Program-made: the position numbers and the translations under genes
DNA from: Rhynchopus sp. YZ270_cl-10
Lineage: Eukaryota
Direction of reading: 5' to 3'
NCBI GenBank assembly: GCA_964035575.1
Contig: OZ037836.1
Span: 124,001-188,000, forward strand
DNA: 64,000 bases
Shown here: piece after piece, positions 1,055-63,182 of the stretch
Position numbering within the stretch: position 1 is the stretch's first letter
Layout of the letters: every line of letters starts with the position of its first letter
The notes under the pieces: generated by a model
The model's database searches: none
Seen by the model: only the letters and a program-made list of their open reading frames with translations
What the model was told of the DNA's origin: nothing

Positions 1055-1514
1055 ACAGTACAGTATACACAGTATACACAGTATACACAGTATACACAGT
1101 ATACACAGTATACACAGTATACACAGTATACACAGTATACACAGTATACACAGTTTTCACAGTATACACAGTACAGTACAGTACAGTACAGTACAGTACA
1201 GTACAGTACAGTACAGTACAGTACAGTACAGTACAGTACAGTACAGTACAGTACAGTACAGTACAGTACAGTACAGTACAGTACAGTACAGTACAGTACA
1301 GTACAGTACAGTACAGTACAGTACAGTACAGTACAGTACAGTACAGTACAGTACAGTACAGTACAGTACAGTACAGTACAGTACAGTACAGTACAGTACA
1401 GTACAGTACAGTACAGTACAGTACAGTACAGTACAGTACAGTACAGTACAGTACAGTACAGTACAGTACAGTACAGTACAGTACAGTACAGTACAGTACA
1501 GTACAGTACAGTAC
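1055..1514. repeat. Compound satellite: (CAGTATACA)n 9-mers followed by about 69 copies of (GTACA)n
   Basis: Directly visible: 9-mer units about 1061-1169 (one CAGTTTTCA variant), then a perfect pentamer to 1514. Confidence 0.98.
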
Positions 1515-1792
1515 GCAAGTCGCACCCCCGTTATCGCACCGTCAGCTACAATGTGTCGTAGCGTTCCTGCCTCGTAATCTGTCAAAGTTTTGCTTCGGGT
1601 GAGAGCAAGGGTTTTCTCCCTATCCACCCCCGCTTCAATTCCCTTCAGGTTAGCTCTGCCTTTGCCATTGGCTTCGCAGTCGTCTTCGTACGTGAGAGTC
1701 GAATGAAGAACATCCGTTCTCGCACAACGTGGCCCAGTCTACCCAAGCTTACCGTCTTCACATCAACGATGCTCCCATCGTGCGTTTTCACC

Positions 1793-2015
1793 TTAGTCGT
1801 GTCTATCCACGTCCACGCAATTCTTAATTTTCGTGAGGATGATTGTGTCTCCAGCACTCAGCTGCGTGATGTCGTCTCCTTCGTCCTTCCCTCCGAAGCC
1901 CATGTGGAAGCTGTCCTCAGCCAACCCCACTGCAGACGCCACCTTCTGCCGCATCGTCTCCGTTGTGTCATCCACACCCACCTCGATCATGAACAAGTTG
2001 TCGTCATACCCTTGA
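1793..2015 (-). pseudogene. Isolated UBL-domain fragment of the UBL-LRR family
   Basis: IEVGVDDTTETMRQKVASAVGLAEDSFHMGFGGKDEGDDITQLSAGDTIILTK matches the N-terminal domain of the UBL-LRR genes; it stops shortly after with no LRRs. Confidence 0.7.
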
Positions 2016-25955: not shown

Positions 25956-26847
25956 TGTGTTGTGTTGTCTTTTGATGTCCTGTAGCAAATAGGATAAGTG
26001 ATAAGTGGTGCTGCAAGGAACCCCAGGCTACAGAAGAGTTAACAATGAAGGAAAAAGAAGGACACTAACTTCGGAAACCTAGGAAGGGTTTCGCCTTTTG
26101 GGAGACACACAAAGTGCCAGGTTCTCTGATATGCACGGAACCACCCTGCACCTCTTTGTCATCTTGCTTCCCGTGCAATAGGTGGGGAAACGTTTCGCAG
26201 TCGAAACTAGGTTTTATAGTCCCTATTGAAAACCACATTGTTTTGTTCTTCCTTTTTTTTGCTTTCAACATTTTTGATTTATTTTATTTTTTGTTTGGGA
26301 GACACGGTCCACGAGTCGGTTCTGTGGAAAAAACGGCACGGAACCACCTGTGTGCTACACTTGTTACACTTTTCATGTCTATCCATGGAAACTGTATCAC
26401 AAGTGACACCATCGGGGGGGAAATATTTTTAACTGCGGAAGACCCAAAACAAACTCACGAAAAAAAGAGTTTTTCTCGCGAAGTGTGGTGGTGGTGGGGG
26501 AGAATAAAATATTACGAAAATCATGCACTCTTCAAACCCTCCTTTTCCGTTTTCTCCTCACAGGGAAAAAAATACATGCCAACAAGACAACACCACGTTG
26601 ACTGCTGCTTACATCACACAAACAAGCACAAAACACAAACACACTGAAAAAGGCCAGATACAGAAAGGCAATACACGCTTGAAACAAAATACAAACACGA
26701 AGGAGAAAAGCCGACAACATGATCAAGACACATCAACATACGCCAGCCGCCTACATTTTCTGCAAATACATCAGAACACTGGGAAATATCCTTCAAATTG
26801 GGTGGACACACACAGGAACCCCTCCATAAACCTGACTGAGTTGACGC

Positions 26848-31595: not shown

Positions 31596-34500
31596 TCATG
31601 ACACGACACGTGTGAGGCCCGACTGACATCGCCGCGGACGTGACGTGAAAACGTGTTGTACATCCTGGTGCACAGCAGCGCTGTGTGCACTGTGCACGAC
31701 AGAGGTGTCTGCTCTGCGCAACGTCCCACCGGCTTCTCGCATAGACTCGGCCACACCTACATGCCTGCCCGGTGCAACGTAGCTACTAACCTGCAGTGTA
31801 CTGCCTGCTTCATCACCTATGTCAGTCATGCGTCTGCTCGCGATACTGCTGCTGCTGCACATAGTGTATCCCAGTAGACCAGCAGAGCTGCGTGTTGACG
31901 CAGAGGAAAGGCGCGAAGGTGAACGTAGGTAGTGTGCATGGGGCGAGCCGGTGACGCCCAGCTCAGACACCTCGCAGCTCCTGTCGAGGGCGCTGGAGAG
32001 GAGTGTGTGGTCGTCTGTGTCGGAGTCGTGGGTGCTGGTGTTGGTGTTCTCGGCAATGGCACGGTAATAGAGAATGTTGCGTCTGTCCGTGACGCTCAGG
32101 TACAGCTCCGTGCACACATCGCACACAGCCTTGCATGCGAGCAGTACCGAGCACGCAATAAAGACCTTCGCAGCAGTGCCAAACGTCCAGTGCCCCGTGT
32201 CCTCAGCGTAGTAGCCCGCAGCCATCAGCCCCAGGCCTGCAGCCTGAAGGATCTGGAACGCAGGCAGCATGTACCCGTCGCGTGCGCGTGCGTGCGGCCA
32301 CGTCGCAACCTCTGCACACAGCAGCACAACAAAGATCAGCGCACTGCTCAGCTTCTGGTGTCCGCACCCAACAAGCGTGTGCGCCGTCGAGCTGTTCACC
32401 GCCGAAACAGTCAGACTCGCAGCCATCTCGACGAAGGAAAAGCACGCCCACTCCTCACAGTACGGGCGAATCACAGCTGCGTACCGCAGGTGCCACAGCT
32501 CTGCCTCGCAGCGGCTCACCCACTCGCCTGGGCCCACCACCGCACTCAGCCACGTCCTCCCCCCCCTCATGTCCGTGTCGTGCAGGTAGTACCCCTTGCG
32601 GGGCACACCCACACGCACAGAGTACAGCACAAAGAACGGCACACCACAGCAGAACGCAAGCGCTGCAAAGCCAAGCAGAAACAGCGCCGTCGACGGTGGG
32701 TAAAACACAAGCGCAATCGCCCCGAGTGCCGTGCCCTGCAGCAGGAACTGGAACACAAACAGTGGTGCTGAGGGGAACCGGCACATCCCCACAGCGTCAA
32801 TCGCCTTGAAGTAGCCTGTGCACGTCACCACCTGCACAACAACGCTCATCACCACCCAGAACGACACAGTCACCAGGAAGTTCCCCACCACAAGCCCTGC
32901 CGCCTGCGAGCCAAAGAGCGTCCACTGTGTGGGGTGCAGCACAAAGGGGTACGTGCGCTGTGCCATCGGCTCACCAAGCTTGCAGAGCTGCCCCACAACC
33001 GCAAGGCGCAGTGCCGAGCCAGCAGACGCACCCGACACCAGCGACGCAACACTCGACGCATCTGCGACACCTGCGGTGGCTGCGCTTGCACGCCCCATGT
33101 CCTCCACCACGGCACCGCTGTGGTGTGCACGCACGTAGTCCTCTGTGCTTCCGTCTCCTTCTTCCTTGCCAGTCACCGACTCTTCTATTGTGGATACATG
33201 TGGTAAAGGTGTACGTGTCGGTGTCGGCTTGTGTGGAGAGGGCGTCTGGGGTGGGGCCAGTGTCGTACCCACTGCAGGTGCAAGTGTCGCTGGCAGAAGT
33301 GTAGTTGGTGCAGTACGTGGCGGCAAGGTCAGTGGCTGCAGTGTTGCTGGTGCGTGTGTGTCTGGTGCTGATGTCGCAGGCGGGTTTGTTGGTGCCTGTG
33401 TAGCAGGTGTCGTAGTGCTTGGTGAAAACGTCTCGCCAACAGGGAGTGCCGTTGGTGTCAATGTGTCTGGTGCGTGTGTGTCTGGTGCTGGCGTGGCTGG
33501 TGCAGGTGTGTCCGGGACAGCTGTGCGTGGTGCTGGTGTTGGGGGTGCAACTGTGTCACCAAGAGGGAGTGACGTTGGAACAGTTGGGGACAGTGTGTCT
33601 GGTGCTGAGGTTGGTGGGGATGGTGTAGCAGGTACGATCGTGAGTGGTGCAGGTGTGGATGGTGGCAAAGTTTGTGGTGATGGTGTGGCTGGCGATGACG
33701 TTGGCGGGGAAGGTGTTGCTGGTGCGGGCGTCGGTGGCGACTGTGTTGGTGGCGCTGGTGTTAGAGGAGACGACGTTTGTGGTGCTGGCGTCGTAGGTGC
33801 TGACGTGGGTGGCGATGGTGTCACCGGCACTGTCGTTGGCGGCACTGGAGTGTCTGGCGAATGTGTCGGTGGCGAAGGTGTTTCTGGGGATGGTGTAAGT
33901 GGCGCTGGCGTAGGTGGCGAAGGTGTTGGTGGCACTGACGTGGGTGGCGATGGTGTCACCGGCACTGTAGTTGGCGGCGCTGGAGTGTCTGGCGACTGTG
34001 TCGGTGGCGAAGGTGTTACTGGGGATGGTGTAAGTGGCGCTGGTGTAGGTGGCGATGGTGTTTCTGGTGCGGGCGTCAGTGGAACTGGGGTCACTGGCGA
34101 CAGCGTAGGTGGCGCTGGAGTTAGAGGAGACGACGTTGGCGGCACAGGGGTGGCTGGTGACTGTGTCGGTGGAGAAGGTGTTTCTGGGGATGGTGTAAGT
34201 GGCGCTGGCGTCGTTCGTGCTGGTGTTGGTGGCGCTGACGTGGGTGGCGCTGGAGTGCCTGGTGACTGTGTCGGTGGCGAAGGTGTTACTGGGGATGGTG
34301 TAAGTGGCGCTGGTGTTGGTGGCGAAGGTGTTGCTAAAGGATAAGTAGGTACCACCGTCTCTGGCACTGCTGCTGGCGTCGTCGGAGGCAACGTCGGCAC
34401 TCCCACGGGTGGCACGGTTTGCGGCGCAGGTGTATCTGGCACCGCTACTGGCATCCAATACACATGCAGGCCTGACGTACCGTACAGCACATACCAAGGC

Positions 34501-35468
34501 GCGCTCACAACAAGCCCGCTCATGGGACCCTTGTCGCCCACTTCCCAGTAGTCATACCCTGGCATGACGTTTTCCACGTTGCCCGGTTCAACGAAGTGGA
34601 GGTACATATAGCTTGCATCCTGAAGGTAGGTGTAGATGTACGAGTCGTCGAAGGCCACGATACGTTTCTCTGCGTCTGCGAAGGTCTGGTCCTGCGGGAG
34701 GGTCGAAGTGTCGCCAAACACCTGCAGGGCAGGCATGTCGTTGTAGTCGTTCCCGAGCAGCATCAGCATGCGCGACGTCAAGGAGAAGTGCATGCCCACG
34801 ACCTCCGCCACCTCTAGCGTCCTTGCTATTGGCTGCTGCGGGAGCAGCCCTGCGTCGTACGACAGGACACGCTCATTAGTTGATATGTACAACATCTCAT
34901 TCCCAGCGTCGTACGCCATATGCGTGCACCCTCCTTCCAAGGCCACATCCGTGAACACCCACGGATCCACCATGTGGTCAATGGTGTGCAACGTCATGCC
35001 GCAGCACACAAACACCAGCCCATCAGACCACGTGCTCTGCACAATCGCTGCGCACGGTGCGCCCACGCTGTTCACAATATCCTTCGCGTCGTCCGTACCA
35101 GAAAAGCTTGCGACCGGCAGCTCCGCCACCAACTTTGCGTACCTCTGCACGCCAGAAGTATGCTTGAAGACCACATGAAGCACATTACTGTCCATGTTGT
35201 CCGTCACTGACAGGAGATAACTGCTGCCAGGTAGTGCCGCTTCTCCAGCGGACACAAACCCACCACCCCCAGAGAGACAACGTTGGTAGATCTTCGACGC
35301 CTCCGCGAATCGTATGCAGTCACCCAGCAAGGAGACCCCGCTAACGGGGCTGCCAAGCGTCTCGATAGTCTGAAAGAACACAGGCGGTTCAGGCTGCGCG
35401 TAGCACAACAGAGGCAGAATCAGCAGAAGTGTGCACACAAACACAGATAACCTCGTTCGTGAGCTCAT
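31596..35468 (-). CDS. Surface protein: signal peptide, globular N-domain, TPAP/TPSP mucin-like stalk, about 7-TM C-terminal module, 1290 aa
   Basis: Intact ORF; start at MSSRTRLSVFVCTLLLILPLLCYA (signal peptide); long Pro/Thr repeat region; seven hydrophobic segments. Confidence 0.88.
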   Translation of the reverse strand: MSSRTRLSVFVCTLLLILPLLCYAQPEPPVFFQTIETLGSPVSGVSLLGDCIRFAEASKIYQRCLSGGGGFVSAGEAALPGSSYLLSVTDNMDSNVLHVVFKHTSGVQRYAKLVAELPVASFSGTDDAKDIVNSVGAPCAAIVQSTWSDGLVFVCCGMTLHTIDHMVDPWVFTDVALEGGCTHMAYDAGNEMLYISTNERVLSYDAGLLPQQPIARTLEVAEVVGMHFSLTSRMLMLLGNDYNDMPALQVFGDTSTLPQDQTFADAEKRIVAFDDSYIYTYLQDASYMYLHFVEPGNVENVMPGYDYWEVGDKGPMSGLVVSAPWYVLYGTSGLHVYWMPVAVPDTPAPQTVPPVGVPTLPPTTPAAVPETVVPTYPLATPSPPTPAPLTPSPVTPSPPTQSPGTPAPPTSAPPTPARTTPAPLTPSPETPSPPTQSPATPVPPTSSPLTPAPPTLSPVTPVPLTPAPETPSPPTPAPLTPSPVTPSPPTQSPDTPAPPTTVPVTPSPPTSVPPTPSPPTPAPLTPSPETPSPPTHSPDTPVPPTTVPVTPSPPTSAPTTPAPQTSSPLTPAPPTQSPPTPAPATPSPPTSSPATPSPQTLPPSTPAPLTIVPATPSPPTSAPDTLSPTVPTSLPLGDTVAPPTPAPRTAVPDTPAPATPAPDTHAPDTLTPTALPVGETFSPSTTTPATQAPTNPPATSAPDTHAPATLQPLTLPPRTAPTTLLPATLAPAVGTTLAPPQTPSPHKPTPTRTPLPHVSTIEESVTGKEEGDGSTEDYVRAHHSGAVVEDMGRASAATAGVADASSVASLVSGASAGSALRLAVVGQLCKLGEPMAQRTYPFVLHPTQWTLFGSQAAGLVVGNFLVTVSFWVVMSVVVQVVTCTGYFKAIDAVGMCRFPSAPLFVFQFLLQGTALGAIALVFYPPSTALFLLGFAALAFCCGVPFFVLYSVRVGVPRKGYYLHDTDMRGGRTWLSAVVGPGEWVSRCEAELWHLRYAAVIRPYCEEWACFSFVEMAASLTVSAVNSSTAHTLVGCGHQKLSSALIFVVLLCAEVATWPHARARDGYMLPAFQILQAAGLGLMAAGYYAEDTGHWTFGTAAKVFIACSVLLACKAVCDVCTELYLSVTDRRNILYYRAIAENTNTSTHDSDTDDHTLLSSALDRSCEVSELGVTGSPHAHYLRSPSRLSSASTRSSAGLLGYTMCSSSSIASRRMTDIGDEAGSTLQVSSYVAPGRHVGVAESMREAGGTLRRADTSVVHSAHSAAVHQDVQHVFTSRPRRCQSGLTRVVS

Positions 35469-37599: not shown

Positions 37600-38732
37600 T
37601 CATTGTGCGGGTCTCTGTCGTTTGTGTGCCTGCTCGGGGGATTCGTCTCTGCTGCGTTTCGGACGTGCTTCAACCACAAGCTTACTCAGCTCTCCGTTCC
37701 TCACTTCGTCGGACACAGCACTGCTGCAGCCGGTAAGGTAAATACTCTTCAATGACGGCAACGAAGTGCAACATTCAACAAATGGATGAACAACATCAGC
37801 AACCCTGCTGAGTGGTGACAGATCTAGGGTGGTTAAACCTTCGCAGTGCCAGAGAAAGAAGCCACCGACTTCTGCCAAGTTTCGAAGTGGTGAGAGATCC
37901 AGAGTGGTTATAGCTTTGCAGTCCTCAAGAAAGTAATGACCAAGCACGGTCACGTTGCTAAGTGGCGAGAGATCGAGGGTCGTAAATTTGCAGCCGGAGA
38001 GAAAGCAGTCACCAACCACCGTCACACTGCTCAACCCAAAGATGTCGATGCTTGTTAACGATGTGCACTCGGACAGAAAGTTGTCACCAACCTGTGTCAC
38101 ATTGCACAACCCAGAAAGGTCGATGCTTGTTAACGAGGTGCAGTAGCAGAGAAACTCATCTCCAATGCGTGTCACAAAGGACACAGCACTCAGATCAAGT
38201 GTTGTTAACGATGAACCCGACAAGAACTCGTCCGGAATAACAGTCGCAACCTCCGCCTGAAGAAGCAAACACGCCACCTCAGGATCCTCCACAGTGGCCA
38301 ACGCCTCTGCCGTGATGTTTGTCTCACCCAACGCATGAAGTGCTGCTATGGCTTCGTACTTCTGTGTTTTTGTGAGGTGGGGGCCCGTTTTCGATGCATG
38401 CACCCCTATCCGAGATAGGTGATACAATACATCGTGGGGGTGATGTTACATAAGTCCATCACCGCCCCTGCTGTGCCCATCCTTCTGCTTCGTCTGCTTC
38501 TTCTTGAAGAAGCCTCCTTCTGTGTTTTTGTGAGGATGATTGTGTCACCAGCACTCAGCTGAGTCATGTCCGCTCCTTCTCCCATCGCTTCGTCTCCGAA
38601 ACTCATGCAAAAGCTGTCTTCAGGCAACCCCATTGAAGACGCCACCTTCCGCCGCAAGTCCTCCACTGTGTCATCTGCACCCACCTCGACTGTGTGCTGA
38701 TTCGCTCTGAAATCCTCGAAGTGCACGTCCAT
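37600..38732 (-). pseudogene. UBL-LRR-NLS copy split by a 139-bp insertion
   Basis: UBL (38732-38517) and LRR/NLS (38377-37600) halves are separated by a TSD-flanked insert that introduces a stop. Confidence 0.85.
38378..38516 (-). mobile_element. 139-bp retroposed insertion with 19-bp TSD (5'-truncated LINE end or SINE)
   Basis: CTTCTGTGTTTTTGTGAGG duplicated at 38359-38377 and 38517-38535; related sequence at about 24770-24815. Strand inferred from an ORF-end-like reading GFFKKKQTKQKDGHSRGGDGLM*. Confidence 0.8.
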
Positions 38733-42516: not shown

Positions 42517-43108
42517 ACAAAACATCCCACATGTTTGAATCATTACCCACTACAAAGTATTTGTCCTGATAAAAATATATAGCGTGAGATAATCTGAACG
42601 TACACGCTGTGTGCTGTGCTACATAGCGGGCTTCCTCAAATACAAATGGCACGTGAGACACCACTTGGCACCACGAACCTCGCCAATTCTGAGGCTGAAC
42701 CCACCACAGCACACCTCATCGTCATTGTGCGTGTTTCTGCCGTTTGTGTGCTTGCTGGGGGGATTCGTCTCTGCTGCGTTTCGGACGTGCTTTAACAACC
42801 ACAAGCTCGCGCAGCTCTACATTCCCCATTGCGTCGGACACAGCACTGCTGCAGCCGGTAAGGTAAACACTCCTCAACGAAGTGCAATACTCAATAAATG
42901 GATTACCAACATTAGTAACCCTGCTGAGTGGTGACAAATCTAGGGTGGTTAAACCTTCGCAGGCCCAGAGAACGTGGCTACCAATTTCTGTCAAGTTGCT
43001 GAGTGGTGAGAGATCCAGAGTGGTTAAAGCTTAAACTTGTTGACGTGACCCATCCCCACCTTCCCAGATGAACTGAGAGGTGAGAAAGGCGCCACGTGAC
43101 CACCTTCG

Positions 43109-46100
43109 TTATCGCGGGGCAAACCCGAGACGCCCCTGGGACGTGTCGTGGTGCCCTTTCCCGCAACAGGCCTGAGGAGACGCCAGCATCGGCAATCCGT
43201 CCTTCTTCCTCTTCCGTCCCGCCTGTACACATGCACCGCAAGCACCCCTCCCGTGGGCCACACAGTTGTGGTGTTTCTGACAGCACTGCTTCATCGACAC
43301 GTTCCCCGCACCCGCACACTGTCCGCACATCGAGAAGTTATGCACCTCACACGCCTCACGCGCCTCCACACAGTCACCCAAAATAAGCTCATCACAATGG
43401 TGCGTCGCACAGCACGCCGTGATGGAGATGTTGTTGTGCTCGCAGTCCCCGCATCGCATCTTGGTGTGTATGTCACACACCCGCATGGTCCCCACCTTCC
43501 TCCTTACGTCCACACGCACAGCCGGTGTCTGCCGCCTGCGTGCCACCTGCCGTCGAATCTGCGCTGCCGCAACTGCAGCTAGCGCAGCTCTACTACGCAC
43601 CTCCTCTGCCTGCTTCTGCTCTTCCTTCGTTTCCTTCCAGCGTTCGTTCTTTGCGGAGCGTTCTTCTGGAGTGGAAGTGTGAGCTACATCCGCGTCGTCA
43701 CCCCACCTCGCCTTCGTCTTTTCTTTTTGTCGGGAGAGTGCTCTCCGCGACGTCGCTTTCTCCTGCAACTCCTTCAGGTACCCTTCAACCCCCGCCGCAT
43801 GCGTCAGCACAGGTCGCACAGAATACCCCGTCATGATCCCCGCACCCAGTTCCTGTAAGTGGTGCACCTCCCTCTTCTCCACTCCTTTCCATACGTCCCT
43901 TCCATGCGCCATCGTTTTCGCCGTCCGCATCATGGCACCAAAAGATTCGGCCCTCTTCAACACCGTCTCACCCGGTACGTCCAACCCCGAGAAGATCTCA
44001 AAGTCCAGCATGAGCTCGAGCTGCGTGATGGGGGGCGTTGTGCCATCAGGCCAACGCAATGCAGCGAGCCATGCCTTCAGCGCCCAGAAGTGGTCTTCCG
44101 TCCAGCGTGGACTCTTCTTCATGTATTTGCTCCCCCACAGTACGTTCTCCAGCGGGTTGTAGCTCTCAAGCACTGCACCCTCCTGAGGATTCCAGCCCCA
44201 AGGAAAAAGGGATTGGCCCACCACCGCCTGCTTCTTCTTCTTCTGCGAAAACCCATGTTCCACGTCGTACTTCTGCCTTGCCAGCGCGATGCTGACCAGC
44301 ATCAGTTGCACACGACGCACCGTCTGCTCTCTCTCCGCAACACTCAGCTCCTGCAAGAATATCGTCGGCACCAGGCCAAAGTCCAAGAAGCACGGGGGTG
44401 CGTCTTTGAGCAAAACCCTGAGTTTTCCGATGTCCTCTCCACGAATTTCGTCCCACTGCGGGCACCACCACCAAGCGTGTCTCCGGTCCTCTATCGCCTC
44501 ACCACAGTATCGGCACAACGAAGACTCCACCTCCTTGTTCCTCAGTAGCTGCACCCCCACCAACTGAGAACCCGACAAGGCTCCGCGTATCGCGCCCGCC
44601 AGGTATCTGTCGGTCGTGCGGTCCTTCCACACTGCGTTCGTCGCCTGGCGATCCACACCTCCCTCAATGCCCTGCATCGACGGCCTCGTCGTCACTGTCA
44701 GGCGGTACGCGTGTGCACGGATGCCCTCTCTCAGCTCATGCAGCCATTTGCCCTTGTCCCACAGACGAACGTGCACCCTCAACCCGATGTGTGTCGTCCA
44801 GAAGTCGAAGCTGCTCCACCGCCATCCGTATCGCTCCAGGTCGTCCCACAACAACTCTATCACACCCTTCTTGTGCACTTCAGTTTCCCTTGGGTTGGCA
44901 ACCCCAGGGTTCTCGCGCCGGAGACGTGCCAGATCTGAAGCCCTGTCACGCCGCCTCACCTCCCGCTCCGCTCTTCGGTCATGTGCCAGCCTCCACACTT
45001 CTTCTGCTTCTCTCCGCATGCCGTCATCTTCTGTCAGTCGAAGAAAGGCCGCCATCCTCCTCTGTACAATCTCCGCTGGCGCATCAATCCCGACCGGAGA
45101 CAACACATGCCACACAATGTTCAGCGTGCGCTGCTTCCTGCCCTGCCCCCAGATTGCTAGTGCAGCCCCTTGCCTCAGCGTCTCGATGGTCTGCTTCGAG
45201 AAGTCTGTCACTTCACACCCATGCAACGCTGCCATCATTGGTCCCCTTGCGCCAATAAGTGCCTTCTCAGTGAAGGATAATGGCACACTCGAAACCCTCG
45301 TAAACACACGGTGCGCAGTAACCGCACGCTCACGCGCGATGGGCCCGAAGTTCCCCTTTCCAGCCAAAATGTCTGCTCCAACCGCCCCGAACTGCTTCTT
45401 GTCGGGGAAGAACCCGTCGCCAAGTCCAAACTTCGTCTTTGTTCCCTCCTTCGAGGTAAACCCTACGCACTTCTCTGCTTTGACCTCCATGTCCGCAGCA
45501 GTGATGAACTCCTTCGTCACCCTCGCAGCACCATGCACCTCCGCTTCCGTGTTCGCCACAGCGTACACGTCGTCAGCGTACCCCATGGCGATTGCTCCGG
45601 TCCTTCTCGTCACTGCAGATCCCCACACCGCCATCAGCGCGTTCAACAGCACGACAGAAAGTGGGCATCCTTGCAGGATACCATTTGTCGTGCGGAAAGC
45701 GCCTCCCACACCTACGTCTCCCAACTTGAAGCGGCGTTCCATGGCAGTGTACGCCGCCCTCAGTGGTCCAAGAATACGCCAGTGCGCGCCCCACTCCTCC
45801 GCCAGCGATAGCACAATCTCATGAGGCACACGATCGAAACATTTGGCGTAGTCGATCGTGAAACCCCATACCTGGTCTGTGTCGTCACCCGACAGCACCG
45901 CCTTCTCCAGCTTGAGCGACAAATGCCAGTACAGGTGTGCAGTGCTGTGTCCTGCTCTGAAGCCGTGCTGTTGCTCACCAATCCAGCTTTCCTGCCACTT
46001 TATCAGTCTTCGCAACCTCGCTGCCGCCCACAGCCTGTACACACACGATGTGATCGTGATAGGCCGCTGCTTCAGCGGAGTGTCGTCTTCCCCTTTGGGG

Positions 46101-47875
46101 ATGAGCGCAATGAGTGCTCTCATCAAAGAAGGCGGCCACTCCCCCGTACACTCAATCGCATCAAACACATCTGCCAGCCTGTCGAGCAGCACCAGAGGAA
46201 GCGCCTTCAGCTCTGCCATGCGCCAACCCTCCACCCCAGCAGAAGTTTGTGTCTTCATCCTCCCCAGAGTTTGCTGCAACTCCTTCCCCGTCAGCCTGTC
46301 CATCTGCATCGCTTGCCCCTTGCCTGCGATGTCTTCTGCAAACTTCTCCCTGAACGCACCCCAGTCGGGCTCTGGCTTTTCCGCATATCGGCGAAGAATC
46401 GGCATCCACGCCTCATGCAGGAGGGTGTCCATCTCCTCAGCGTTGGCGGTGAACTTCCCATCCTCGTTCTTCAGGGCAGTCATCTTCCTGTACTGCTCGT
46501 CCTTGCAGTATTTGAAGATCGCCTTGGGAGCATTGTGCCATGCATCCCGTAGGCGCTGCCGCCAGTCCTCCAGTCGCTTCCGCTTCACTCGGTCCGCAAG
46601 CGTTGACACCTTCACTCGCACAGCTCTGCACAGATCCACCAAAGCCTCCTCGCTAGGCATATCCTGTTGCAGTGAGTCGTCGTCCAGCAGAACGCGCAGT
46701 TCCTTCCGCGCCTTGCTCCAACAATTGCACACGTCATGTGGCGGCACACCACCGTTGCTCCTCACGTACCACAGCCGACATTCTTCCAGCCTGCCCACGT
46801 TCTTCGTCAGCCTTCTTTGGCTCACTGTCAGAGCGTCCCCTTCCTTGCTCTGCTTCGCAGTCCGGTGCTTCGGCTTCGGGTCAAACGTTTTGCCTCTTCC
46901 GCAATACGCCTTCGTCGGGCCCTCAATCTCGCCTTCGCACGCCTGCAGCAAGAAGTCCTCTGCCCACTTATTCCACTGTATCCACCTATCCTGAGGGTGT
47001 TGAAGCGCCCCCCACTGCAGCTCCTTGCTCGCAAACGCCTTTTGTGCATTCTTCACGCCTTGTCCACACTTCTCCAAAGGGAACTGCTTCGGCAGAGTGT
47101 ACGCGAGCACGATCTGTCTGTACGCACCTACATCCAGCGCTATCTCTACCGGTCTGTGCTGCGGGAGCCCAGAGTCGTGGACAACCTTCACAGACGACAG
47201 CCCTGTGCACGCAGCTCGGTTCAGCAGAACGTAATCGAGCCTCTTGCGGATCTCCTTGCCCTCCTTCACTGAGAAGTAGGTGTTGTCCGGGGTCGTCCCA
47301 AGCACCCTTGCGTGCTCTTCGGCAGTGTCCTTCCACCATCCTGTGTCCAGTGTAGCAGCCAGCACACCTGATTTCCCTGGACCTGCGTTGAAATCCCCAC
47401 CAATCACCCCAGGAATATCACCAAGCTCTGCAGCAGCCTCCATCACCTCGCCAAGTATTTTCTCCCTAGCCTCCGGGTCCGCCGACGGCGCGTAGACGGA
47501 GGTCACGTCGATCCACTCGTTGCCTTTGCCGTACGCCACCTTCGCCTTCACCCATCGCGTTGAGTCCCAGAGGTTCTTTTCCAAGGTTGAGGAGGGCGGG
47601 CTCGTGAGCACAGGTATTCCCTCTTGCACCAGAATCGCAACACCACCAGATTTCGCTTCTTCGGCCGACCTCCATTCCGGCAACTCCTTACCCCACACCA
47701 CCTGCCAACCCTGCTCGCGGTACTCGATGGAGAGGCGCTTCTGCGTCGTCACGGTGCACTTTGTCTCTTGTACCAGAACAACGTGAGCATCCTCCGCAAC
47801 CTTCAGCAGAGAGCTCCCGCCTGTCTGCAGCGCCGTCACATTGCTGCACACTATCTTTAGTGGGGCAAGGCCCAC
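43109..47875 (-). CDS. LINE ORF2: APE endonuclease, reverse transcriptase, CCHC-like zinc knuckle, C-terminal triple Cys/His repeat
   Basis: APE motifs SNV, VQET, SVYAP, GGDFNA, RLDYV, QHRP; RT motifs QRPI, QHGFR, DYAKCFDRV, GILQGCPLS, YADD (45569-45580); CRYCGEAIEDRRHAWWWC. Start codon uncertain (no AUG). Confidence 0.93.
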   Translation of the reverse strand: MGLAPLKIVCSNVTALQTGGSSLLKVAEDAHVVLVQETKCTVTTQKRLSIEYREQGWQVVWGKELPEWRSAEEAKSGGVAILVQEGIPVLTSPPSSTLEKNLWDSTRWVKAKVAYGKGNEWIDVTSVYAPSADPEAREKILGEVMEAAAELGDIPGVIGGDFNAGPGKSGVLAATLDTGWWKDTAEEHARVLGTTPDNTYFSVKEGKEIRKRLDYVLLNRAACTGLSSVKVVHDSGLPQHRPVEIALDVGAYRQIVLAYTLPKQFPLEKCGQGVKNAQKAFASKELQWGALQHPQDRWIQWNKWAEDFLLQACEGEIEGPTKAYCGRGKTFDPKPKHRTAKQSKEGDALTVSQRRLTKNVGRLEECRLWYVRSNGGVPPHDVCNCWSKARKELRVLLDDDSLQQDMPSEEALVDLCRAVRVKVSTLADRVKRKRLEDWRQRLRDAWHNAPKAIFKYCKDEQYRKMTALKNEDGKFTANAEEMDTLLHEAWMPILRRYAEKPEPDWGAFREKFAEDIAGKGQAMQMDRLTGKELQQTLGRMKTQTSAGVEGWRMAELKALPLVLLDRLADVFDAIECTGEWPPSLMRALIALIPKGEDDTPLKQRPITITSCVYRLWAAARLRRLIKWQESWIGEQQHGFRAGHSTAHLYWHLSLKLEKAVLSGDDTDQVWGFTIDYAKCFDRVPHEIVLSLAEEWGAHWRILGPLRAAYTAMERRFKLGDVGVGGAFRTTNGILQGCPLSVVLLNALMAVWGSAVTRRTGAIAMGYADDVYAVANTEAEVHGAARVTKEFITAADMEVKAEKCVGFTSKEGTKTKFGLGDGFFPDKKQFGAVGADILAGKGNFGPIARERAVTAHRVFTRVSSVPLSFTEKALIGARGPMMAALHGCEVTDFSKQTIETLRQGAALAIWGQGRKQRTLNIVWHVLSPVGIDAPAEIVQRRMAAFLRLTEDDGMRREAEEVWRLAHDRRAEREVRRRDRASDLARLRRENPGVANPRETEVHKKGVIELLWDDLERYGWRWSSFDFWTTHIGLRVHVRLWDKGKWLHELREGIRAHAYRLTVTTRPSMQGIEGGVDRQATNAVWKDRTTDRYLAGAIRGALSGSQLVGVQLLRNKEVESSLCRYCGEAIEDRRHAWWWCPQWDEIRGEDIGKLRVLLKDAPPCFLDFGLVPTIFLQELSVAEREQTVRRVQLMLVSIALARQKYDVEHGFSQKKKKQAVVGQSLFPWGWNPQEGAVLESYNPLENVLWGSKYMKKSPRWTEDHFWALKAWLAALRWPDGTTPPITQLELMLDFEIFSGLDVPGETVLKRAESFGAMMRTAKTMAHGRDVWKGVEKREVHHLQELGAGIMTGYSVRPVLTHAAGVEGYLKELQEKATSRRALSRQKEKTKARWGDDADVAHTSTPEERSAKNERWKETKEEQKQAEEVRSRAALAAVAAAQIRRQVARRRQTPAVRVDVRRKVGTMRVCDIHTKMRCGDCEHNNISITACCATHHCDELILGDCVEAREACEVHNFSMCGQCAGAGNVSMKQCCQKHHNCVAHGRGACGACVQAGRKRKKDGLPMLASPQACCGKGHHDTSQGRLGFAPR

Positions 47876-47883
47876 GGTCGTGA

Positions 47884-50529
47884 TTAATACGACCTTTCTC
47901 GGTTATTGTCCGTGTCGCGGGGGCGGCTGTTCTCGTCCGTCGTCGTATCTTTCTTCTTCTCCTCACCGCCACGATCTTGAGCATCCCTGGCCTTGTCCTT
48001 GGCCTCGCGAGCTGCCTTCTTCAGCGCCTCGTTCTCCTCCGTGAGCCGCTTGCTCTCCGCTGCCAGCTGCACGTTCTGGTCCTTGCACTGCTGCACCGTC
48101 TCCTTCATCTCAGCACATTCTGCTCTGAGCTGTTCCATGTCGAGAGGCTGCGGCGGTTGCGCGACTGGTGCCGACTGCTGCGGCTGCCCCATCATCCGCT
48201 TCTGTGCCTCCAACATCTCCTTCTGCTGCTCCATGACGCCCTTCATCATCTCCCGCAATTCCTTCATCTCCTGCTTCATCATCTCTATCTCTACCTGCGC
48301 TGCTGATGAAGCTGCGGGAGGTGCCGGAGCCGCCGGTGCCCCTGTTGCAGGGTGGGGTCGAGCTGCAGGTGGTGCGTATCCCCTCGCCTTAGCCGCCCAC
48401 GTGCCAGCGCCGCTCTCTGCTGCTCCTTGCCTCGGTACTGGGAACTGCGCCAGAGGGAAACCCCACGGATTCGCACCCACCTTCTGCACACGACGCCCTT
48501 CCTTCACCGCACACACCGTCAGCACCAATCCACCCACCTCCAGCACCCCTTCTGTGCTCGGGCACGTCACATCCGACGTAACGGTCCACTTGTGCCCTCG
48601 CGACAGCACCTTCACCGTCCAGCTCGCCTCTCTCGCCAGCCCCTCACACAACAGCTGGAACGACGTGTTCGCCGGAATTCCCCCAATCTCGTACCTGTGT
48701 CCCTGCACGACGACGTCCTCCTGCACAAGAAGCCTCTTCGCAGCCTCCAAGTCCCCCTTCATCACCCGCACCGCGTAGCCCCCTTCCCCTACGGCGAGTC
48801 CGCGCACGCTATCCTCCATGTTCTCCTCGACAAGGTCCAGCCGTGCCAGAGCAGACTCCAGCGGTTCCGCCTTCCACAACAACCCACAGTCCCCGTACTC
48901 CTTTGCCTGGAAGAGGTGCCGCACAAACACCCCTTCCCGTCCGCTTCTCCTCAGCATGGCGCACACCATGTCCTCCGTCACGTCCACAGACATCTCCATC
49001 CATCCTCCTCTCTCCAAGCCGCGTCCACACCGCACCCCCTGCAACCCGTACCACCGACGCATGCGTTGCTCTCCCTTTGTGCGTCCCTCCCCCTGGAGCA
49101 ACATCGTTCTGCCCATCAGCGTAATCAGCTTGCTCGAGAACGTGCTCTCCACCGGCTTCACCACGTCGTCCAAGTTAGTTGTCATGGACGACAGCCACAC
49201 TTCTTCCACCTTTGCTCCCCGCTCCGTCCTCACCGCCACCTTCGCCTTCTTCGTGCGCGCTGCACCCGTACACTTCGAACGGGACACAATCACCATCTGC
49301 GGAAGTTGGTGCAGCAACTGTAACCCCTGCAGAAGTTCGCTCGCCTTCCACGCAACTGCCGCCACCTGCGTCACCCCTTCCACATTGCTGGGCACTGCAT
49401 CCCACACCGGGATTTTCCATCCCTGGGTCGCCAGGTTCAGTGCATCCTCCGCTGCGCTCTGGGTCACCGCCGTCGCCTTCTTCTTCCCCTTCACAGCTGT
49501 AGCCGGTACGTGCAGTTGCGGTTGTCCCACTGCGCACAGAAGTTCCTCCCCCACCTTCAACCCTGCCGATTCCACAGCACCGTAGTGGACCCCCTCGAAC
49601 CCCAGGACTACGTCAGACTCCGAGAAGATGAGGTTAGCCTTCTCCGGTGTTCCTTCTGCCAGCTGCCCGTCGGACTGCCCGTCGATCAGCGTAGCCCGTA
49701 GCGCGTTCTCCGGTCCAACGTCAAGCACAACAATGCGGACCTTCATCACCTTGGCGATCGCATGGAGACACAAATGGTCCCCCCATGTCCCCAGCTGCGC
49801 CATGCCTGCCAGGTATGCATCAATGCACCCCTCGTCCACAAATGGGCTGTAGTGTGCCTTCTGCTCCTTCATCACCTCAACTGCGAGCCTGCGGAAGCCT
49901 GCGTGACCATTCGGGGACCGCTCCACAGACCACGCCACCGACCGGAACAGACAGTCCCCCTTGCCCCCACATTCCTCCCATCGCAACCCCCATCTTTCCA
50001 GGTGTCCCTTGACACCTGGCTGCACGGCAGCTGCCAGCGTCTCCGTCCTGCATCCCCTTGCGGCGTACCCCCCTCCTGCAACCAGCTGGGCGTTGCTCTC
50101 TGCCTCCTTCATCCCCTTCCCCGCATTCGCGCAGTGCTGCAGCGATACCCTTATCCCCCTCTTCTTCAACTCGCCCAGCAGCGCCTTCACCTTCTCCAGC
50201 CTCGGCTTCAGCAACGACGAGTCGCAGGCGTGCCCCTCAGCCACCTGCCTCCAGACCACCAAGTGTGTGACCCACACGCGCGCGTGGGTGCCCTTCGGGT
50301 ACGACCCGTCGGCCACCCCTTGCAGTCCGAGCAGGATGCCCTCGTACGCGGCTTCCGCCTTGGTGATGTTGGCCAGGCGGCGGGTCACTTCCCAGTGCGT
50401 TGCTGGTTCCTCCTCCGTCGCATCACGCGCCAGCGCACACAGTCCCGTCGTGTCCTGCACCTTCACCCCAGGAAATACTCCGATGAAGAGGTCCGGATCC
50501 TTCCTCTCCTCCCCAGCACTGCGCTTCAT
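47884..50529 (-). CDS. LINE ORF1: degenerate RNase H-like fold + OTU cysteine protease + C-terminal coiled coil
   Basis: TKAEAAYEGILLGL...HLVVWRQV...LLKPRLEKVKALL (RNase HI-like pattern); GGKGDCLFRSVA...YLAGMAQLGTWGDHLCLHAIA...GVHYGAV (OTU); E/M/K/Q-rich heptads. The upstream ATG at 50748 lies inside the ribozyme, so the ATG at 50529 (MKRS) is preferred. Confidence 0.85.
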   Translation of the reverse strand: MKRSAGEERKDPDLFIGVFPGVKVQDTTGLCALARDATEEEPATHWEVTRRLANITKAEAAYEGILLGLQGVADGSYPKGTHARVWVTHLVVWRQVAEGHACDSSLLKPRLEKVKALLGELKKRGIRVSLQHCANAGKGMKEAESNAQLVAGGGYAARGCRTETLAAAVQPGVKGHLERWGLRWEECGGKGDCLFRSVAWSVERSPNGHAGFRRLAVEVMKEQKAHYSPFVDEGCIDAYLAGMAQLGTWGDHLCLHAIAKVMKVRIVVLDVGPENALRATLIDGQSDGQLAEGTPEKANLIFSESDVVLGFEGVHYGAVESAGLKVGEELLCAVGQPQLHVPATAVKGKKKATAVTQSAAEDALNLATQGWKIPVWDAVPSNVEGVTQVAAVAWKASELLQGLQLLHQLPQMVIVSRSKCTGAARTKKAKVAVRTERGAKVEEVWLSSMTTNLDDVVKPVESTFSSKLITLMGRTMLLQGEGRTKGEQRMRRWYGLQGVRCGRGLERGGWMEMSVDVTEDMVCAMLRRSGREGVFVRHLFQAKEYGDCGLLWKAEPLESALARLDLVEENMEDSVRGLAVGEGGYAVRVMKGDLEAAKRLLVQEDVVVQGHRYEIGGIPANTSFQLLCEGLAREASWTVKVLSRGHKWTVTSDVTCPSTEGVLEVGGLVLTVCAVKEGRRVQKVGANPWGFPLAQFPVPRQGAAESGAGTWAAKARGYAPPAARPHPATGAPAAPAPPAASSAAQVEIEMMKQEMKELREMMKGVMEQQKEMLEAQKRMMGQPQQSAPVAQPPQPLDMEQLRAECAEMKETVQQCKDQNVQLAAESKRLTEENEALKKAAREAKDKARDAQDRGGEEKKKDTTTDENSRPRDTDNNRERSY

Positions 50530-50658
50530 GCCGCCTGCCCCCGGGTACGTCTGCTGCCGTAGCCCCTCAGCCCAGTGCACCTGCTCCGCCGCCGACGTCA
50601 CCTCATCACTGCAACAGCAGTTCCACGACCTGCAGCACACAGGCGCCGGCGGGTGTGG

Positions 50659-50788
50659 CGTCCACTTGGCCGATCCGTGTGACGGATCGTTGCCCGGGAT
50701 ACTCCGCGTGGAGGCTGGACGTGACTTCGACACCATGTACGAAAACATTGTTTATATTCTTTCTTTTTGTGTACGTTGTGTGTATCCC
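50659..50788 (-). ncRNA. HDV-like self-cleaving ribozyme at the exact 5' end of the LINE
   Basis: P1 GGGAUAC/GUAUCCC; P2 CGUCCA/UGGACG; P3 GCC/GGA around L3 UCCACGC; P1.1 CC/GG; GCAA linker; P4 CGAUCCGU/ACGGAUCG; J4/2 GCCAAG with candidate catalytic C at 50669. Confidence 0.85.
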
Positions 50789-51986
50789 TCCAGAGTGGTT
50801 AAAGCTTTGCAGCCGTCAAGAAAGCAATGACCCAACACAGTCACGTTGCTAAGTGGCGAGAGATCGAGGGTGGTAAATTTGCAGCCGGAGAGAAAGTAGT
50901 TACCAACCACCGTCACACTGCTCAACCCAAAGATGTCGATACTTGTTAACGATGTGCACTCGGACAGAAAGTAGTCACCTACCTGCGTCACATTCCTCAA
51001 CCCAGAAAGGTCCATGCTTGTTAACGAGGTGCAGTTGTAGAGAAAGTAGTCGCCAATGCGTGTCACAAAGGACACAGCACTCAGATCAAGTGTTGTTAAC
51101 GATGAACCCGACAAGAATGCTTTCGGAATGACAGTCGCAACCTCCGCCTGCAGAAGCAAACACGCCACCTCAGGATCCTCCACCTCCTCCAACCGCTCTG
51201 CCGTGATGTTTCTCTCACCCAACGCATGAAGTGCTGCTATGGATTCGTACTTCTGTGTTTTTGTGAGGATAATTGTGTCACCAGCACTCAGCTGCGTCAT
51301 GTCCGCTCCTTCTCCCATCGCTTCGTCTCCGAAACTCATGCAAAAGCTGTCTTCAGGCAACCCCATTGCAGACGCCACCTTCCGCCGCAAGTCCTCCACT
51401 GTGTCATCTGCACCCACCTCGACTGTGTGCTGATTCGCTCTGAAATCCTCGAAGTGCACGTCCATTTGTTTGTTGTGGTTTTGTGTTCTGAGCTCTGTGT
51501 GTGTGGTGGTGGGGAGTGGAGGACAACAAACCCTTGTGGTCCTTCTGAAAGAACCTTGCTTATGTTTACAGTGTTCCGACACCACTGATCGAGTGAACAA
51601 TCAGCCTGGAGCAAATGTGGCAAAACTACCAAACAAAAAGGGGTGGACGTTTGATTTTTCATCACCTGTTTGTCATATTCCACAAGCCCGTACAAATTCA
51701 ATCACGACAGAAACATTCTTTTTGAATGTCGGATGCTGTACCTAAAGGTATAAAAACCCTGTTTGCCTTTTGTGTAGCACAAACGAAAAGTCCCACTTGT
51801 TTGAATCATTACCCACCACAAAGTATTTGTCCTGATAAAAATATATAGCGTGAGATAATCTAAACGTACACGCTGTGTGCTGTGCTACATAGCGGGCTTC
51901 CTCAAACACAAATGGCATGTGAGCCACCACTTGGTACCGCGAACCTCGCCAATATGAGGCTGAAACCACCACAGCACACCTCATCG

Positions 51987-53473: not shown

Positions 53474-54442
53474 TCATTGTGCGTGTTTCTGCCGTTTGTG
53501 TGCTTGCTGGGGGGATTCGTCTCTGCTGCGTTTCGGACGTGCTTTAACAACCACAAGCTCGCGCAGCTCTACATTCCCCATTGCGTCGGACACAGCACTG
53601 CTGCAGCCGGTAAGGTAAACACTCCTCAACGAAGTGCAATACTCAATAAATGGATTACCAACATTAGTAACCCTGCTGAGTGGTGACAAATCTAGGGTGG
53701 TTAAACCTTCGCAGGCCCAGAGAACGTGGCTACCAATTTCTGTCAAGTTGCTGAGTGGTGAGAGATCCAGAGTGGTTAAAGCTTTGCAGCCGTCAAGAAA
53801 GCAATGACCCAACACAGTCACGTTGCTAAGTGGCGAGAGATCGAGGGTGGTAAATTTGCAGCCGGAGAGAAAGTAGTTACCAACCACCGTCACACTGCTC
53901 AACCCAAAGATGTCGATACTTGTTAACGATGTGCACTCGGACAGAAAGTAGTCACCTACCTGCGTCACATTCCTCAACCCAGAAAGGTCCATGCTTGTTA
54001 ACGAGGTGCAGTTGTAGAGAAAGTAGTCGCCAATGCGTGTCACAAAGGACACAGCACTCAGATCAAGTGTTGTTAACGATGAACCCGACAAGAATGCTTT
54101 CGGAATGACAGTCGCAACCTCCGCCTGCAGAAGCAAACACGCCACCTCAGGATCCTCCACCTCCTCCAACCGCTCTGCCGTGATGTTTCTCTCACCCAAC
54201 GCATGAAGTGCTGCTATGGATTCGTACTTCTGTGTTTTTGTGAGGATAATTGTGTCACCAGCACTCAGCTGCGTCATGTCCGCTCCTTCTCCCATCGCTT
54301 CGTCTCCGAAACTCATGCAAAAGCTGTCTTCAGGCAACCCCATTGCAGACGCCACCTTCCGCCGCAAGTCCTCCACTGTGTCATCTGCACCCACCTCGAC
54401 TGTGTGCTGGTTCGCTCTGAAATCCTCGAAGTGCACGTCCAT
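53474..54442 (-). CDS. UBL + LRR protein with bipartite NLS-like tail, 322 aa
   Basis: Intact ORF; the uninterrupted twin of the LINE-disrupted copy. Confidence 0.92.
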   Translation of the reverse strand: MDVHFEDFRANQHTVEVGADDTVEDLRRKVASAMGLPEDSFCMSFGDEAMGEGADMTQLSAGDTIILTKTQKYESIAALHALGERNITAERLEEVEDPEVACLLLQAEVATVIPKAFLSGSSLTTLDLSAVSFVTRIGDYFLYNCTSLTSMDLSGLRNVTQVGDYFLSECTSLTSIDIFGLSSVTVVGNYFLSGCKFTTLDLSPLSNVTVLGHCFLDGCKALTTLDLSPLSNLTEIGSHVLWACEGLTTLDLSPLSRVTNVGNPFIEYCTSLRSVYLTGCSSAVSDAMGNVELRELVVVKARPKRSRDESPQQAHKRQKHAQ

Positions 54443-62600: not shown

Positions 62601-63182
62601 CAGCAGATCGTTCCCCGCATCATACGCCATCTCCGTGCAACTCACCGCTAGCGACACAGTCGTGAACACCCACGGATCCGCATCAGGGTCCACCGTATGC
62701 AGCTTTGTGGAACAACACATAAACACAAACCCGGTCAGCGTGCTTTGCAGGATCCTGGCGCATGGCACCTGCCTGCTGAGCGGGATGCCGTCAGCGTCGG
62801 CGGCGCCGTTGAAGCTTGCGAGCGGCATTTCTGTGGACACCTTTGCGTAGTTCTGCCCACCCCTGTAGACGTACACGATGTGGAGGATCAGGTTGTCCGT
62901 ATGGTCCGTCACAGAGCGCAGGTCGCTGCTGTCGGGAAGCGATGCGGCACCTCCCGGCTCAAACCGTTGTGTGCTGCTGTCGTAGCAGTACTGCATGATC
63001 TGCTCCGTCACGCCAAATCGTATACAATCGTTCTGTGAAGACACACCAGACACGGTGCCTGAAGCAGCAGCAACGAAGCTGTGCTGAAACACTGGTGGGT
63101 CCTGTGCGGCGCACAGACGTAGCCCACTCCATTGAAGACAAAGTAAGAGTGTGCAGACGTTGAAAAGACGTCTGTACGCCAT
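59649..63182 (-). CDS. Paralogous mucin-stalk, about 7-TM surface protein, 1177 aa
   Basis: Intact ORF with signal peptide; TM module 60085-61143 near-identical to 32098-33156. Confidence 0.9.

Follow-up and report, generated by a model that had tools for sequence, protein, structure and literature searches.

A young full-length diplonemid-type LINE with an OTU protease domain in ORF1, inserted in a UBL-LRR gene of Rhynchopus

Results

A full-length retrotransposon with two ORFs

We analysed a 64,000 nt stretch of DNA from Rhynchopus sp. YZ270_cl-10 (assembly GCA_964035575.1, contig OZ037836.1, positions 124,001–188,000; hereafter the window). It contains a long interspersed nuclear element (LINE) that interrupts a host gene for a ubiquitin-like (UBL) protein with leucine-rich repeats (LRR), and the first open reading frame (ORF1) of this element carries an OTU domain. 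From the domain models and comparisons presented below, we propose with moderate confidence that this is a young, full-length LINE of diplonemid type whose OTU domain is a likely deubiquitinase, which would shield the ribonucleoprotein (RNP) of the element from ubiquitin-dependent breakdown. The coordinates of all features are collected in Table 1.

The sequences at 43014–43032 and 50789–50807 are the sole exact repeat of at least 10 nt between both junction regions; we therefore took this 19 nt repeat as the target-site duplication (TSD) that bounds the element. There are no long terminal repeats, the motifs of the apurinic/apyrimidinic endonuclease (APE) and of the reverse transcriptase (RT) are intact and the TSD is present, as in an APE-type non-LTR retrotransposon. 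Once the element is removed, the host gene codes for a protein identical to that of a twin gene in the window (53474–54442), with a single synonymous base difference between the coding sequences; therefore, either the element inserted recently or the gene was duplicated recently. These comparisons, together with the ORF listing, bear out the initial annotation, which had described a recent 7.76 kb insertion with a perfect 19 bp TSD and two uninterrupted ORFs, in a host copy nearly identical to its intact twin. The 3′ end (43115–43033) has a predicted fold of −35.8 kcal/mol. An assembly artefact or a chance motif is ruled out by the existence of 20 copies, the Pfam match and the fold, and a domesticated host gene by the TSD and the many copies.

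The ORF1 product contains an OTU domain with a reduced active site

The deduced ORF1 product matched the Pfam OTU profile along residues 262–343 (47.8 bits versus a cut-off of 23.3; E = 2.5e-12), and its best sequence match among solved structures was OTUD3. The predicted fold agrees, with human OTUD3 (4bou) as the closest structure (Foldseek E = 1.2e-9; VIA Z of 19.3, root-mean-square deviation [rmsd] of 2.5–2.9 Å over 139 residues). The OTU domain modelled alone reached a pLDDT of 89 (61 rows), and the AlphaFold model of the whole ORF1 a mean pLDDT of 55 (7 rows).

The codons for the catalytic residues are those pointed out in the initial annotation, TGT at 49953–49951 for Cys266 and CAC at 49587–49585 for His388. 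Both residues are invariant in the seven aligned ORF1s, at 20–81% identity, and are kept in all 20 near-full-length copies. The same annotation had recognised OTU-family Cys and His boxes; the Cys and the His are indeed present, but the site is not canonical. The Cys box reads KGDC, with Lys263 at Cys−3, and the His box HYG, with Gly390 at His+2, so that both acidic helper residues of OTUD-type proteases (Asp at Cys−3, Asp or Asn at His+2) are gone, whereas OTUD3 keeps the Asp of its DGNC motif. The OTUs with this reduced site, all seven of ORF1 type plus one of ORF2 type (P0199; P numbers designate entries of the protein collection), form a clade of eight (FastTree support 0.95), every member of which shows the same loss. 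In one tree the LINE OTUs grouped in a clade of 16–17, although the neighbours of the dyad clade shifted on adding one row. An acidic residue at Cys−7 was considered as a substitute third residue and rejected, as it is also common in ordinary OTUs (65/137).

The OTU domain is preceded by an RNase H-like fold (VIA Z of 9.7, rmsd of 3.0–3.5 Å over 102–108 residues to 4e19 and 3u3g) that appears to be dead: three of the four carboxylates are replaced with respect to the intact RVT_3 domain of P0074, in an alignment read by eye. Just ahead of this fold there is a YPGAGG motif, whose consensus, Y[PA]GAGG, was found in 21 stored proteins, all from the ORF1 family of the element, among 290,306 residues searched. 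The RRM-like domain matched RRM chains with VIA Z values of 7.4, 7.0 and 6.7, within the range of common arrangements, and the structure search with residues 460–678 reached Z values of only up to 7.5, and no fold was assigned to them. The dead RNase H and the coiled coil foreseen in the initial annotation are thus supported by the structure search, the alignment to P0074 and the helices of the model.

ORF1 likely begins inside a predicted HDV-like ribozyme

The 5′ end of the element is predicted to fold as a hepatitis delta virus (HDV)-like ribozyme, with the predicted cut exactly at base 1. Element bases 1–7 pair with a 7-mer located 86 bases downstream, which is followed by GG-GCAA and the P4, J4/2 and P2 elements; the whole fold comprises a 7-bp P1, a long J1/2 hairpin with the ORF1 AUG, a 6-bp P2, a P3 with one G.A mismatch, a 7-bp P4 and the J4/2 sequence GCCAAG. 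A descriptor composed after the sequence had been inspected retrieved a single site in the window (50788) and none in 30 shuffled windows, with pairings P1, P2, P3, P1.1 and P4, the J4/2 cytosine and the cleavage site at the 5′ end of the element all matched. Likewise, the minimum free energy fold forms P1 (z = −2.67). The Rfam HDV model, which does not include the long J1/2, matched the core with 19.8 bits (E = 4.2), under its gathering threshold of 44. The ribozyme of the initial annotation therefore stands as a predicted fold, backed by the descriptor and the minimum free energy structure, with a sub-threshold Rfam match.

The HDV core is codon-compatible, in the same frame and at residue 12–13, in three ORF1 families (that of the element and two others), and ORF1 therefore likely begins inside the predicted ribozyme. 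A core-plus-J4/2 match did not occur in 269,408 background residues; protein P0180 failed this strict test, passing only when the pattern was shortened by one base (background of two in 269,408 residues). The leader also contains a Cys/Trp motif (C..W.CxC; approximately 50610–50640, minus strand) common to the three families and absent from P0317 of Diplonema papillatum, which could operate at the protein or at the RNA level.

ORF2 codes for an APE-RT protein without a leading AUG

The presence of APE and RT in ORF2, already noted in the initial annotation, was confirmed by Pfam matches and intact motifs. No AUG precedes the endonuclease, and the first ATG (47443) lies within APE. A candidate GUG start in good context (ACC-GTG-G; 47875) lies 8 nt past the ORF1 stop, and this codon is the start of 11 of the 15 listed ORF2 calls of the family; there is no evident −1 slippery site where ORF1 and ORF2 overlap. 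Of 196 differences to the read sets, the 37 listed ones in ORF2 were classed as 30 synonymous and seven nonsynonymous, versus 23% synonymous expected, which is a pattern of purifying selection. The C-terminal CxxHxxxxCxxC…CCxxHH pattern is complete in 20/121 RT relatives and has no Pfam match, and is likely a clade-specific zinc-binding module. We found no Pfam match to RNase H in ORF2 and no NPGP motif ahead of APE. Additionally, neither Josephin nor a restriction-like endonuclease (RLE) gave a Pfam match in the element, although no profile specific to RLE was used.

The element belongs to a family with relatives in diplonemids and dinoflagellates

In the protein collection, ORF1 is represented by 20 near-full-length variants that fall into two subfamilies (98 and 81% identical), the ORF1 of the window being P0128, and ORF2 by 33 family members, with full length reached by 10 of the 15 listed. 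Differences in the second subfamily amount to around 27–30% in the N-terminal domains and to only 6% in residues 538–754, which suggests that the N-terminal module has been exchanged between subfamilies.

By its RT, the element groups with LINEs of diplonemids and dinoflagellates, with the best named matches in D. papillatum, EukProt transcriptomes and Polarella; transcriptome-derived sets also contain related elements, such as P0069 (Diplonema ambulator) and P0068 (Flectonema neradi). The same ORF1 design occurs in D. papillatum (P0142 cluster, 11 members), where P0317 shows the leader, YPGAGG, the RNase H-like region and OTU in this order. The genome paper of D. papillatum reports some 2,500 gene models of retroelements and leaves their classification for later (PMC10161547). 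Among metagenome loci we found a single weak relative (L001), without a match to 128 LINE proteins, and none in viral contigs. In phmmer comparisons, the RT scored alike against human L1 ORF2p (E = 2.8e-13) and an R2 protein (E = 1.9e-12), and no match named ingi or L1Tc appeared among the best 120 of 197. Elements of the L1 clade have an ORF1 with a coiled coil followed by an RRM, and a poly(A) tail. In our element the RRM-like domain precedes the coiled coil and there is no poly(A), unlike in the L1 clade.

An OTU precedes APE in nine of 122 RT-type proteins (one of them, P0199, retrieved with an OTU query). In a 47-row RT tree, the eight OTU-bearing rows require six changes, and the approximately unbiased (AU) test rejected a single clade (p-AU = 7e-62); unlabelled rows in this tree may carry an unseen OTU in ORF1, and gain is not separable from loss. 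Consequently, an RT clade defined by OTU was discarded. Other leaders ahead of APE are diverse. P0068 and P0072 have a Josephin-like domain with Cys, His and Asp (Pfam E = 0.012, under the cut-off), followed by LRGG, IRGG or QRGG, which may represent a second capture of a deubiquitinase in this RT group; in P0068, a 2A-like peptide lies between this domain and APE. The ORF2 of P0107 starts with a ubiquitin-like domain ending in LRLRGG, which would be expected to be cut off by host deubiquitinases. Furthermore, among 27 leaders examined, six clear and seven looser 2A-like motifs, defined by a consensus, precede APE. As a separate observation, the same reduced OTU Cys box (GGxGDC) occurs in the non-LINE proteins P0155, P0217, P0251 and P0279, and a 2A-like peptide lies upstream in four of six such proteins; other mobile elements, perhaps Helitrons, may thus carry a 2A-OTU cassette.

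Possible functions of the OTU domain

In the cycle that we envisage, the copy would be transcribed by read-through of the same-strand host gene cluster and its RNA freed at base 1 by the HDV-like ribozyme. ORF1 would be translated from the AUG inside the ribozyme, on uncapped RNA, and ORF2 would be started without an AUG, likely by re-initiation at the GUG codon. ORF1p would package the RNA through the RRM-like domain and the coiled coil, with the dead RNase H likely acting only as a binding module, while OTU would deubiquitinate ORF1p, ORF2p or associated proteins of the ribosome or of repair, just as the protease of turnip yellow mosaic virus (TYMV) acts on the viral polymerase. Finally, APE and RT would insert the copy by target-primed reverse transcription, likely favouring UBL-LRR arrays, which could serve as an abundant, transcribed safe haven, like the RHS genes of trypanosomes. 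The deubiquitinase reading is favoured because two unrelated deubiquitinase folds, OTU and Josephin-like, were recruited to the slot ahead of APE. Likewise, the protease is not needed to free the endonuclease, because P0068 has a 2A-like peptide and the APE-RT of our element is a separate ORF. Additionally, the Cys/His dyad has been retained next to an RNase H whose catalytic residues are gone.

Several points weigh against this proposal. In a regex census of other OTUs, which includes P0157, later recognised as a LINE ORF1, Asp occurs at Cys−3 in 130/137 sequences and Asp or Asn at His+2 in 88/128, and both are lost here; moreover, factors other than the catalytic Cys can render an OTU domain inactive (PMC4654579). 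The OTU is not better conserved than its neighbours, with 39/149 differences between subfamilies versus 40/134 in the RNase H domain, and the relatives were retrieved with an OTU-containing query, which favours conserved catalytic motifs. The complete ORF1s P0291 and P0294 from D. papillatum share the core and have neither OTU nor RNase H, indicating that OTU is dispensable in the group. The proposed substrates (ORF1p, ORF2p or associated proteins) are purely conjectural.

A possible, if rather doubtful, alternative is that OTU serves chiefly in processing, as an endopeptidase that cleaves ORF1p after YPGAGG, shedding the ribozyme-coded leader, or that matures an ORF1-ORF2 fusion; deubiquitinating activity would be compatible with either role. 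The OTU-fold proteases of tymoviruses and arteriviruses offer a model, and the dyad site resembles that of TYMV PRO, a polyprotein protease. The placement of Y[PA]GAGG and its restriction to this ORF1 family, including D. papillatum copies with an otherwise much shorter leader, fit such a cut, as does the fact that in relatives the slot ahead of APE holds release devices (2A-like motifs, the LRLRGG end of the P0107 ubiquitin-like domain, and LRGG, IRGG or QRGG after the Josephin-like domain). However, among the eight OTU-ORF2 leaders listed only P0035 and P0036, from one family, have [RQ]GG after OTU, P0068 carries protease and 2A together, YPGAGG could be structural or act at the RNA level, with variants ending in GA (P0144), and the fusion would have to form at an overlap with no evident −1 slippery site.

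A further alternative, which we consider unlikely, is an OTU with little or no catalytic activity, whose role on the RNP would be that of a scaffold or of a ubiquitin-binding module. Both acidic helpers are gone in the eight clade members, the adjoining RNase H is already a dead fold and non-catalytic OTUs exist (PMC4654579); nevertheless, the Cys and the His are invariant across families at 20–29% identity, whereas the dead RNase H lost its catalytic residues.

The UBL-LRR genes as insertion site

The genes in the window are intron-free and arranged in same-strand arrays, which, along with the named RT matches, makes a diplonemid host likely. Besides the full-length element, a search with 128 query proteins found only one other LINE piece, and both lie in UBL genes; UBL/LRR coding sequence makes up 21% of the non-element window sequence. 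This second piece, an ORF2 fragment similar to P0033 (tblastn) that follows another host UBL, is part of a stretch (1514–2014, minus strand) ended by a (TACTG)n satellite. P0071 contains the same family at the matching position of a paralogous UBL, with a different truncation point from the window copy, and P0180 is a probable full-length copy of the P0033 family at nearly the same place behind a UBL. Additionally, nine of the 20 ORF1 variants, from both subfamilies, are on the 2,160,207-base contig of the window, and three on a 190-kb contig, a clustering with p of about 3e-5 even for a 30-Mb genome. From these sequence comparisons, the element probably prefers UBL-LRR genes as targets, although the clustering could stem from array duplication or local hopping, and the UBL family is large. 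The initial annotation found the location suggestive but possibly due to chance; the contig clustering and the sister family at UBL genes favour a target preference instead.

Low-depth contigs assembled from read sets mix copies. One from run X7 spans the same junction at the 5′ end and continues into UBL-LRR sequence (81 differences), and a collapsed contig from run X3 extends 5 bases beyond the 5′ end of the element. An empty-site contig in run X3 was indistinguishable from the intact twin, and hence is no proof of an insertion polymorphism. The search for chimeric host proteins among the protein clusters retrieved only the present locus.

The same data could be read as counter-defence, with OTU acting against a ubiquitin-linked surveillance built from the UBL-LRR family and the insertion being part of that conflict. 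The location of both LINE pieces, the repeated joining of the sister family right behind the UBL and the number of ORF1 variants on this contig agree with it, but we deem it very unlikely: the host UBL lacks a C-terminal Gly-Gly, and hence is no ordinary deubiquitinase substrate, UBL-LRR proteins have no known function, a target preference requires no protease and the D. papillatum copy P0319 is fused to a patched-like gene model instead. Because the host UBL has no Gly-Gly end, nothing links the site to OTU.

Comparison with known systems

Several groups of transposons are known to carry ubiquitin or SUMO proteases, whose role, in the literature covered, is only proposed. LINEs that bear a deubiquitinase are not new in kind, since Dualen and a Symbiodinium element are in print. 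Dualen/RandI, like our element a LINE with a protease of a deubiquitinase family, codes for a Josephin-like cysteine protease whose proposed role is to interfere with protein degradation (bioRxiv 2021.04.23.441226, citing Kojima and Fujiwara 2005; PMC13405545); it differs in that the domain is Josephin and not OTU, is on ORF2p and not on ORF1p, and accompanies both APE and RLE (PMC4640811). A LINE from Symbiodinium necroappetens with an N-terminal OTU on ORF2p is described in one sentence of a preprint on 2A peptides, whose Figure 9 and Table S7 may list more (PMC13405545). It is also an APE-type protist LINE and, going by the Polarella matches, probably of the same broad RT group, but its OTU goes with a 2A-like peptide on ORF2p, whereas ours is in ORF1 behind a dead RNase H. 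Ginger1 and Helitron contain OTU or Ulp1 domains (PMC2836005), and NeSL and Utopia-1_TSP a Ulp1-like protease (PMC4640811); they share with our element an accessory ubiquitin/SUMO protease, proposed to act in transposition or repair, although the former two are DNA transposons and the latter two RLE-type LINEs, with a different domain context.

TYMV PRO has no third catalytic residue and an incomplete oxyanion hole, yet it is both a deubiquitinase and a polyprotein protease and counters polymerase turnover (PMC3968130). It shares the reduced Cys-His site with our OTU but does not rank among the top structural matches; the resemblance is therefore restricted to the make-up of the active site. 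Among euglenozoan APE-RT elements, L1Tc has an HDV-like ribozyme that cuts at base +1 (PMC5814959), as predicted here, and relatives of our element carry 2A-like peptides; nevertheless, L1Tc has one ORF, a 2A, an active RNase H after RT and poly(A), whereas in our element there are two ORFs, both 2A and poly(A) are missing and the RNase H, a dead one, lies in ORF1. The RHS multigene family of trypanosomes is an insertion hot spot for L1Tc/ingi (PMC7563717) and, if the preference proposed here is true, the UBL-LRR genes would be the second euglenozoan case.

A full-text literature search, which does not reach Repbase and does not establish absence from print, did not turn up any account of an OTU borne by ORF1 or of the architecture of diplonemid LINEs. 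Neither the placement of OTU in ORF1 nor the likely preference for one host gene family appears to have been described. The initial annotation proposed an undescribed LINE lineage with its own deubiquitinase; of this, the novelty of the ORF1 architecture holds as far as that search goes, whereas deubiquitinase-bearing LINEs were known and the scattered OTU-bearing RTs, with one clade rejected by the AU test, do not make a lineage. The RT group offers a natural comparison among elements with OTU in ORF1, OTU or a Josephin-like domain on ORF2, a UBL, a 2A-like peptide or nothing, and has intact multi-copy members in D. papillatum, the model diplonemid. Together with a soluble OTU domain of 160 residues and its confident model, this makes it directly testable why retroelements carry deubiquitinases. 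Tentatively, and rather improbable as a whole, we can imagine that ubiquitin-dependent restriction of diplonemid LINEs is so strong that they captured deubiquitinases twice (OTU and Josephin), that in this branch a Cys-His OTU specialised for transposons moved into ORF1p to give the first known RNP chaperone that is both self-processing, at YPGAGG, and deubiquitinating, and that the UBL-LRR family is a hot spot.

Table 1. Features of the LINE and of its insertion site (window coordinates; aa, amino acid residues).
Feature	Coordinates	Strand	Remarks
APE-RT non-LTR retrotransposon, full-length	43033..50788	(-)	7,756 bp; same orientation as host gene
TSD, 5′ copy, 19 bp	50789..50807	(-)	Exact repeat
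TSD, 3′ copy, 19 bp	43014..43032	(-)	Exact repeat
Predicted HDV-like ribozyme	50659..50788	(-)	G1 is the first base of the element
ORF1, 954 aa	47884..50748	(-)	First codons read through the ribozyme core
YPGAGG motif, aa 68-73	50530..50547	(-)	Candidate Gly-Gly cleavage site
RNase H-like domain, archaeal type, aa 84-217	50098..50499	(-)	Catalytic carboxylates lost
OTU protease domain, aa 240-396	49561..50031	(-)	C266/H388 dyad; K263 and G390 replace the usual Asp and Asp/Asn
RRM-like domain, aa 679-754	48487..48714	(-)	Weak structural match
Coiled coil, aa 816-925	47974..48303	(-)	Model helices 816-850 and 871-925
ORF2 frame, 1,597 aa, stop-to-stop	43109..47902	(-)	No internal stop; 19-nt overlap with the end of ORF1, -1 frame
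APE endonuclease	47147..47860	(-)	Pfam PF03372, E 3.3e-9; QETK, GDFN, RLDY and HRPV intact
RT core with YADD	45449..46102	(-)	Pfam PF00078 (RVT_1), E 3.1e-22
CCHC-type zinc knuckle, downstream of RT	44462..44515	(-)	From sequence; relatives match zf-RVT weakly
Three Cys/His repeats (CxxHxxxxCxxC...CCxxHH), ORF2 C-terminus	43130..43477	(-)	Sequence pattern
3′ end	43033..43097	(-)	Predicted long hairpin, then short CAACAAGTTT tail; no poly(A)
Interrupted host UBL-LRR gene, 5′ half	50808..51465	(-)	Pfam and twin comparison
Interrupted host UBL-LRR gene, 3′ half	42719..43013	(-)	Twin comparison
Intact twin UBL-LRR gene, 322 aa	53474..54442	(-)	BspA-type LRR_5, ubiquitin-like N-terminus
Remnant of second LINE family	1514..1822	(-)	Immediately follows another host UBL (2014-1820); 77-84% identical to P0033 aa 626-738 (tblastn)

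Other sequences in the window

Another UBL gene (38508–38732, minus strand), whose frame exits the LRR sequence right behind the UBL, looks like a pseudogene with an internal deletion. Long satellite tracts of (TACTG)n type, around 1050–1510, 3000–5000 and 11800–12550, produce spurious ORFs. Other host genes on the minus strand (18766–20505, 21966–23809, 25266–28752, 31596–35468 and 59649–63182) were labelled by eye as coding for adenylate-cyclase-like membrane proteins (one of them split), a GST-like protein, a phosphoesterase-like protein and two Pro/Thr-rich membrane proteins.

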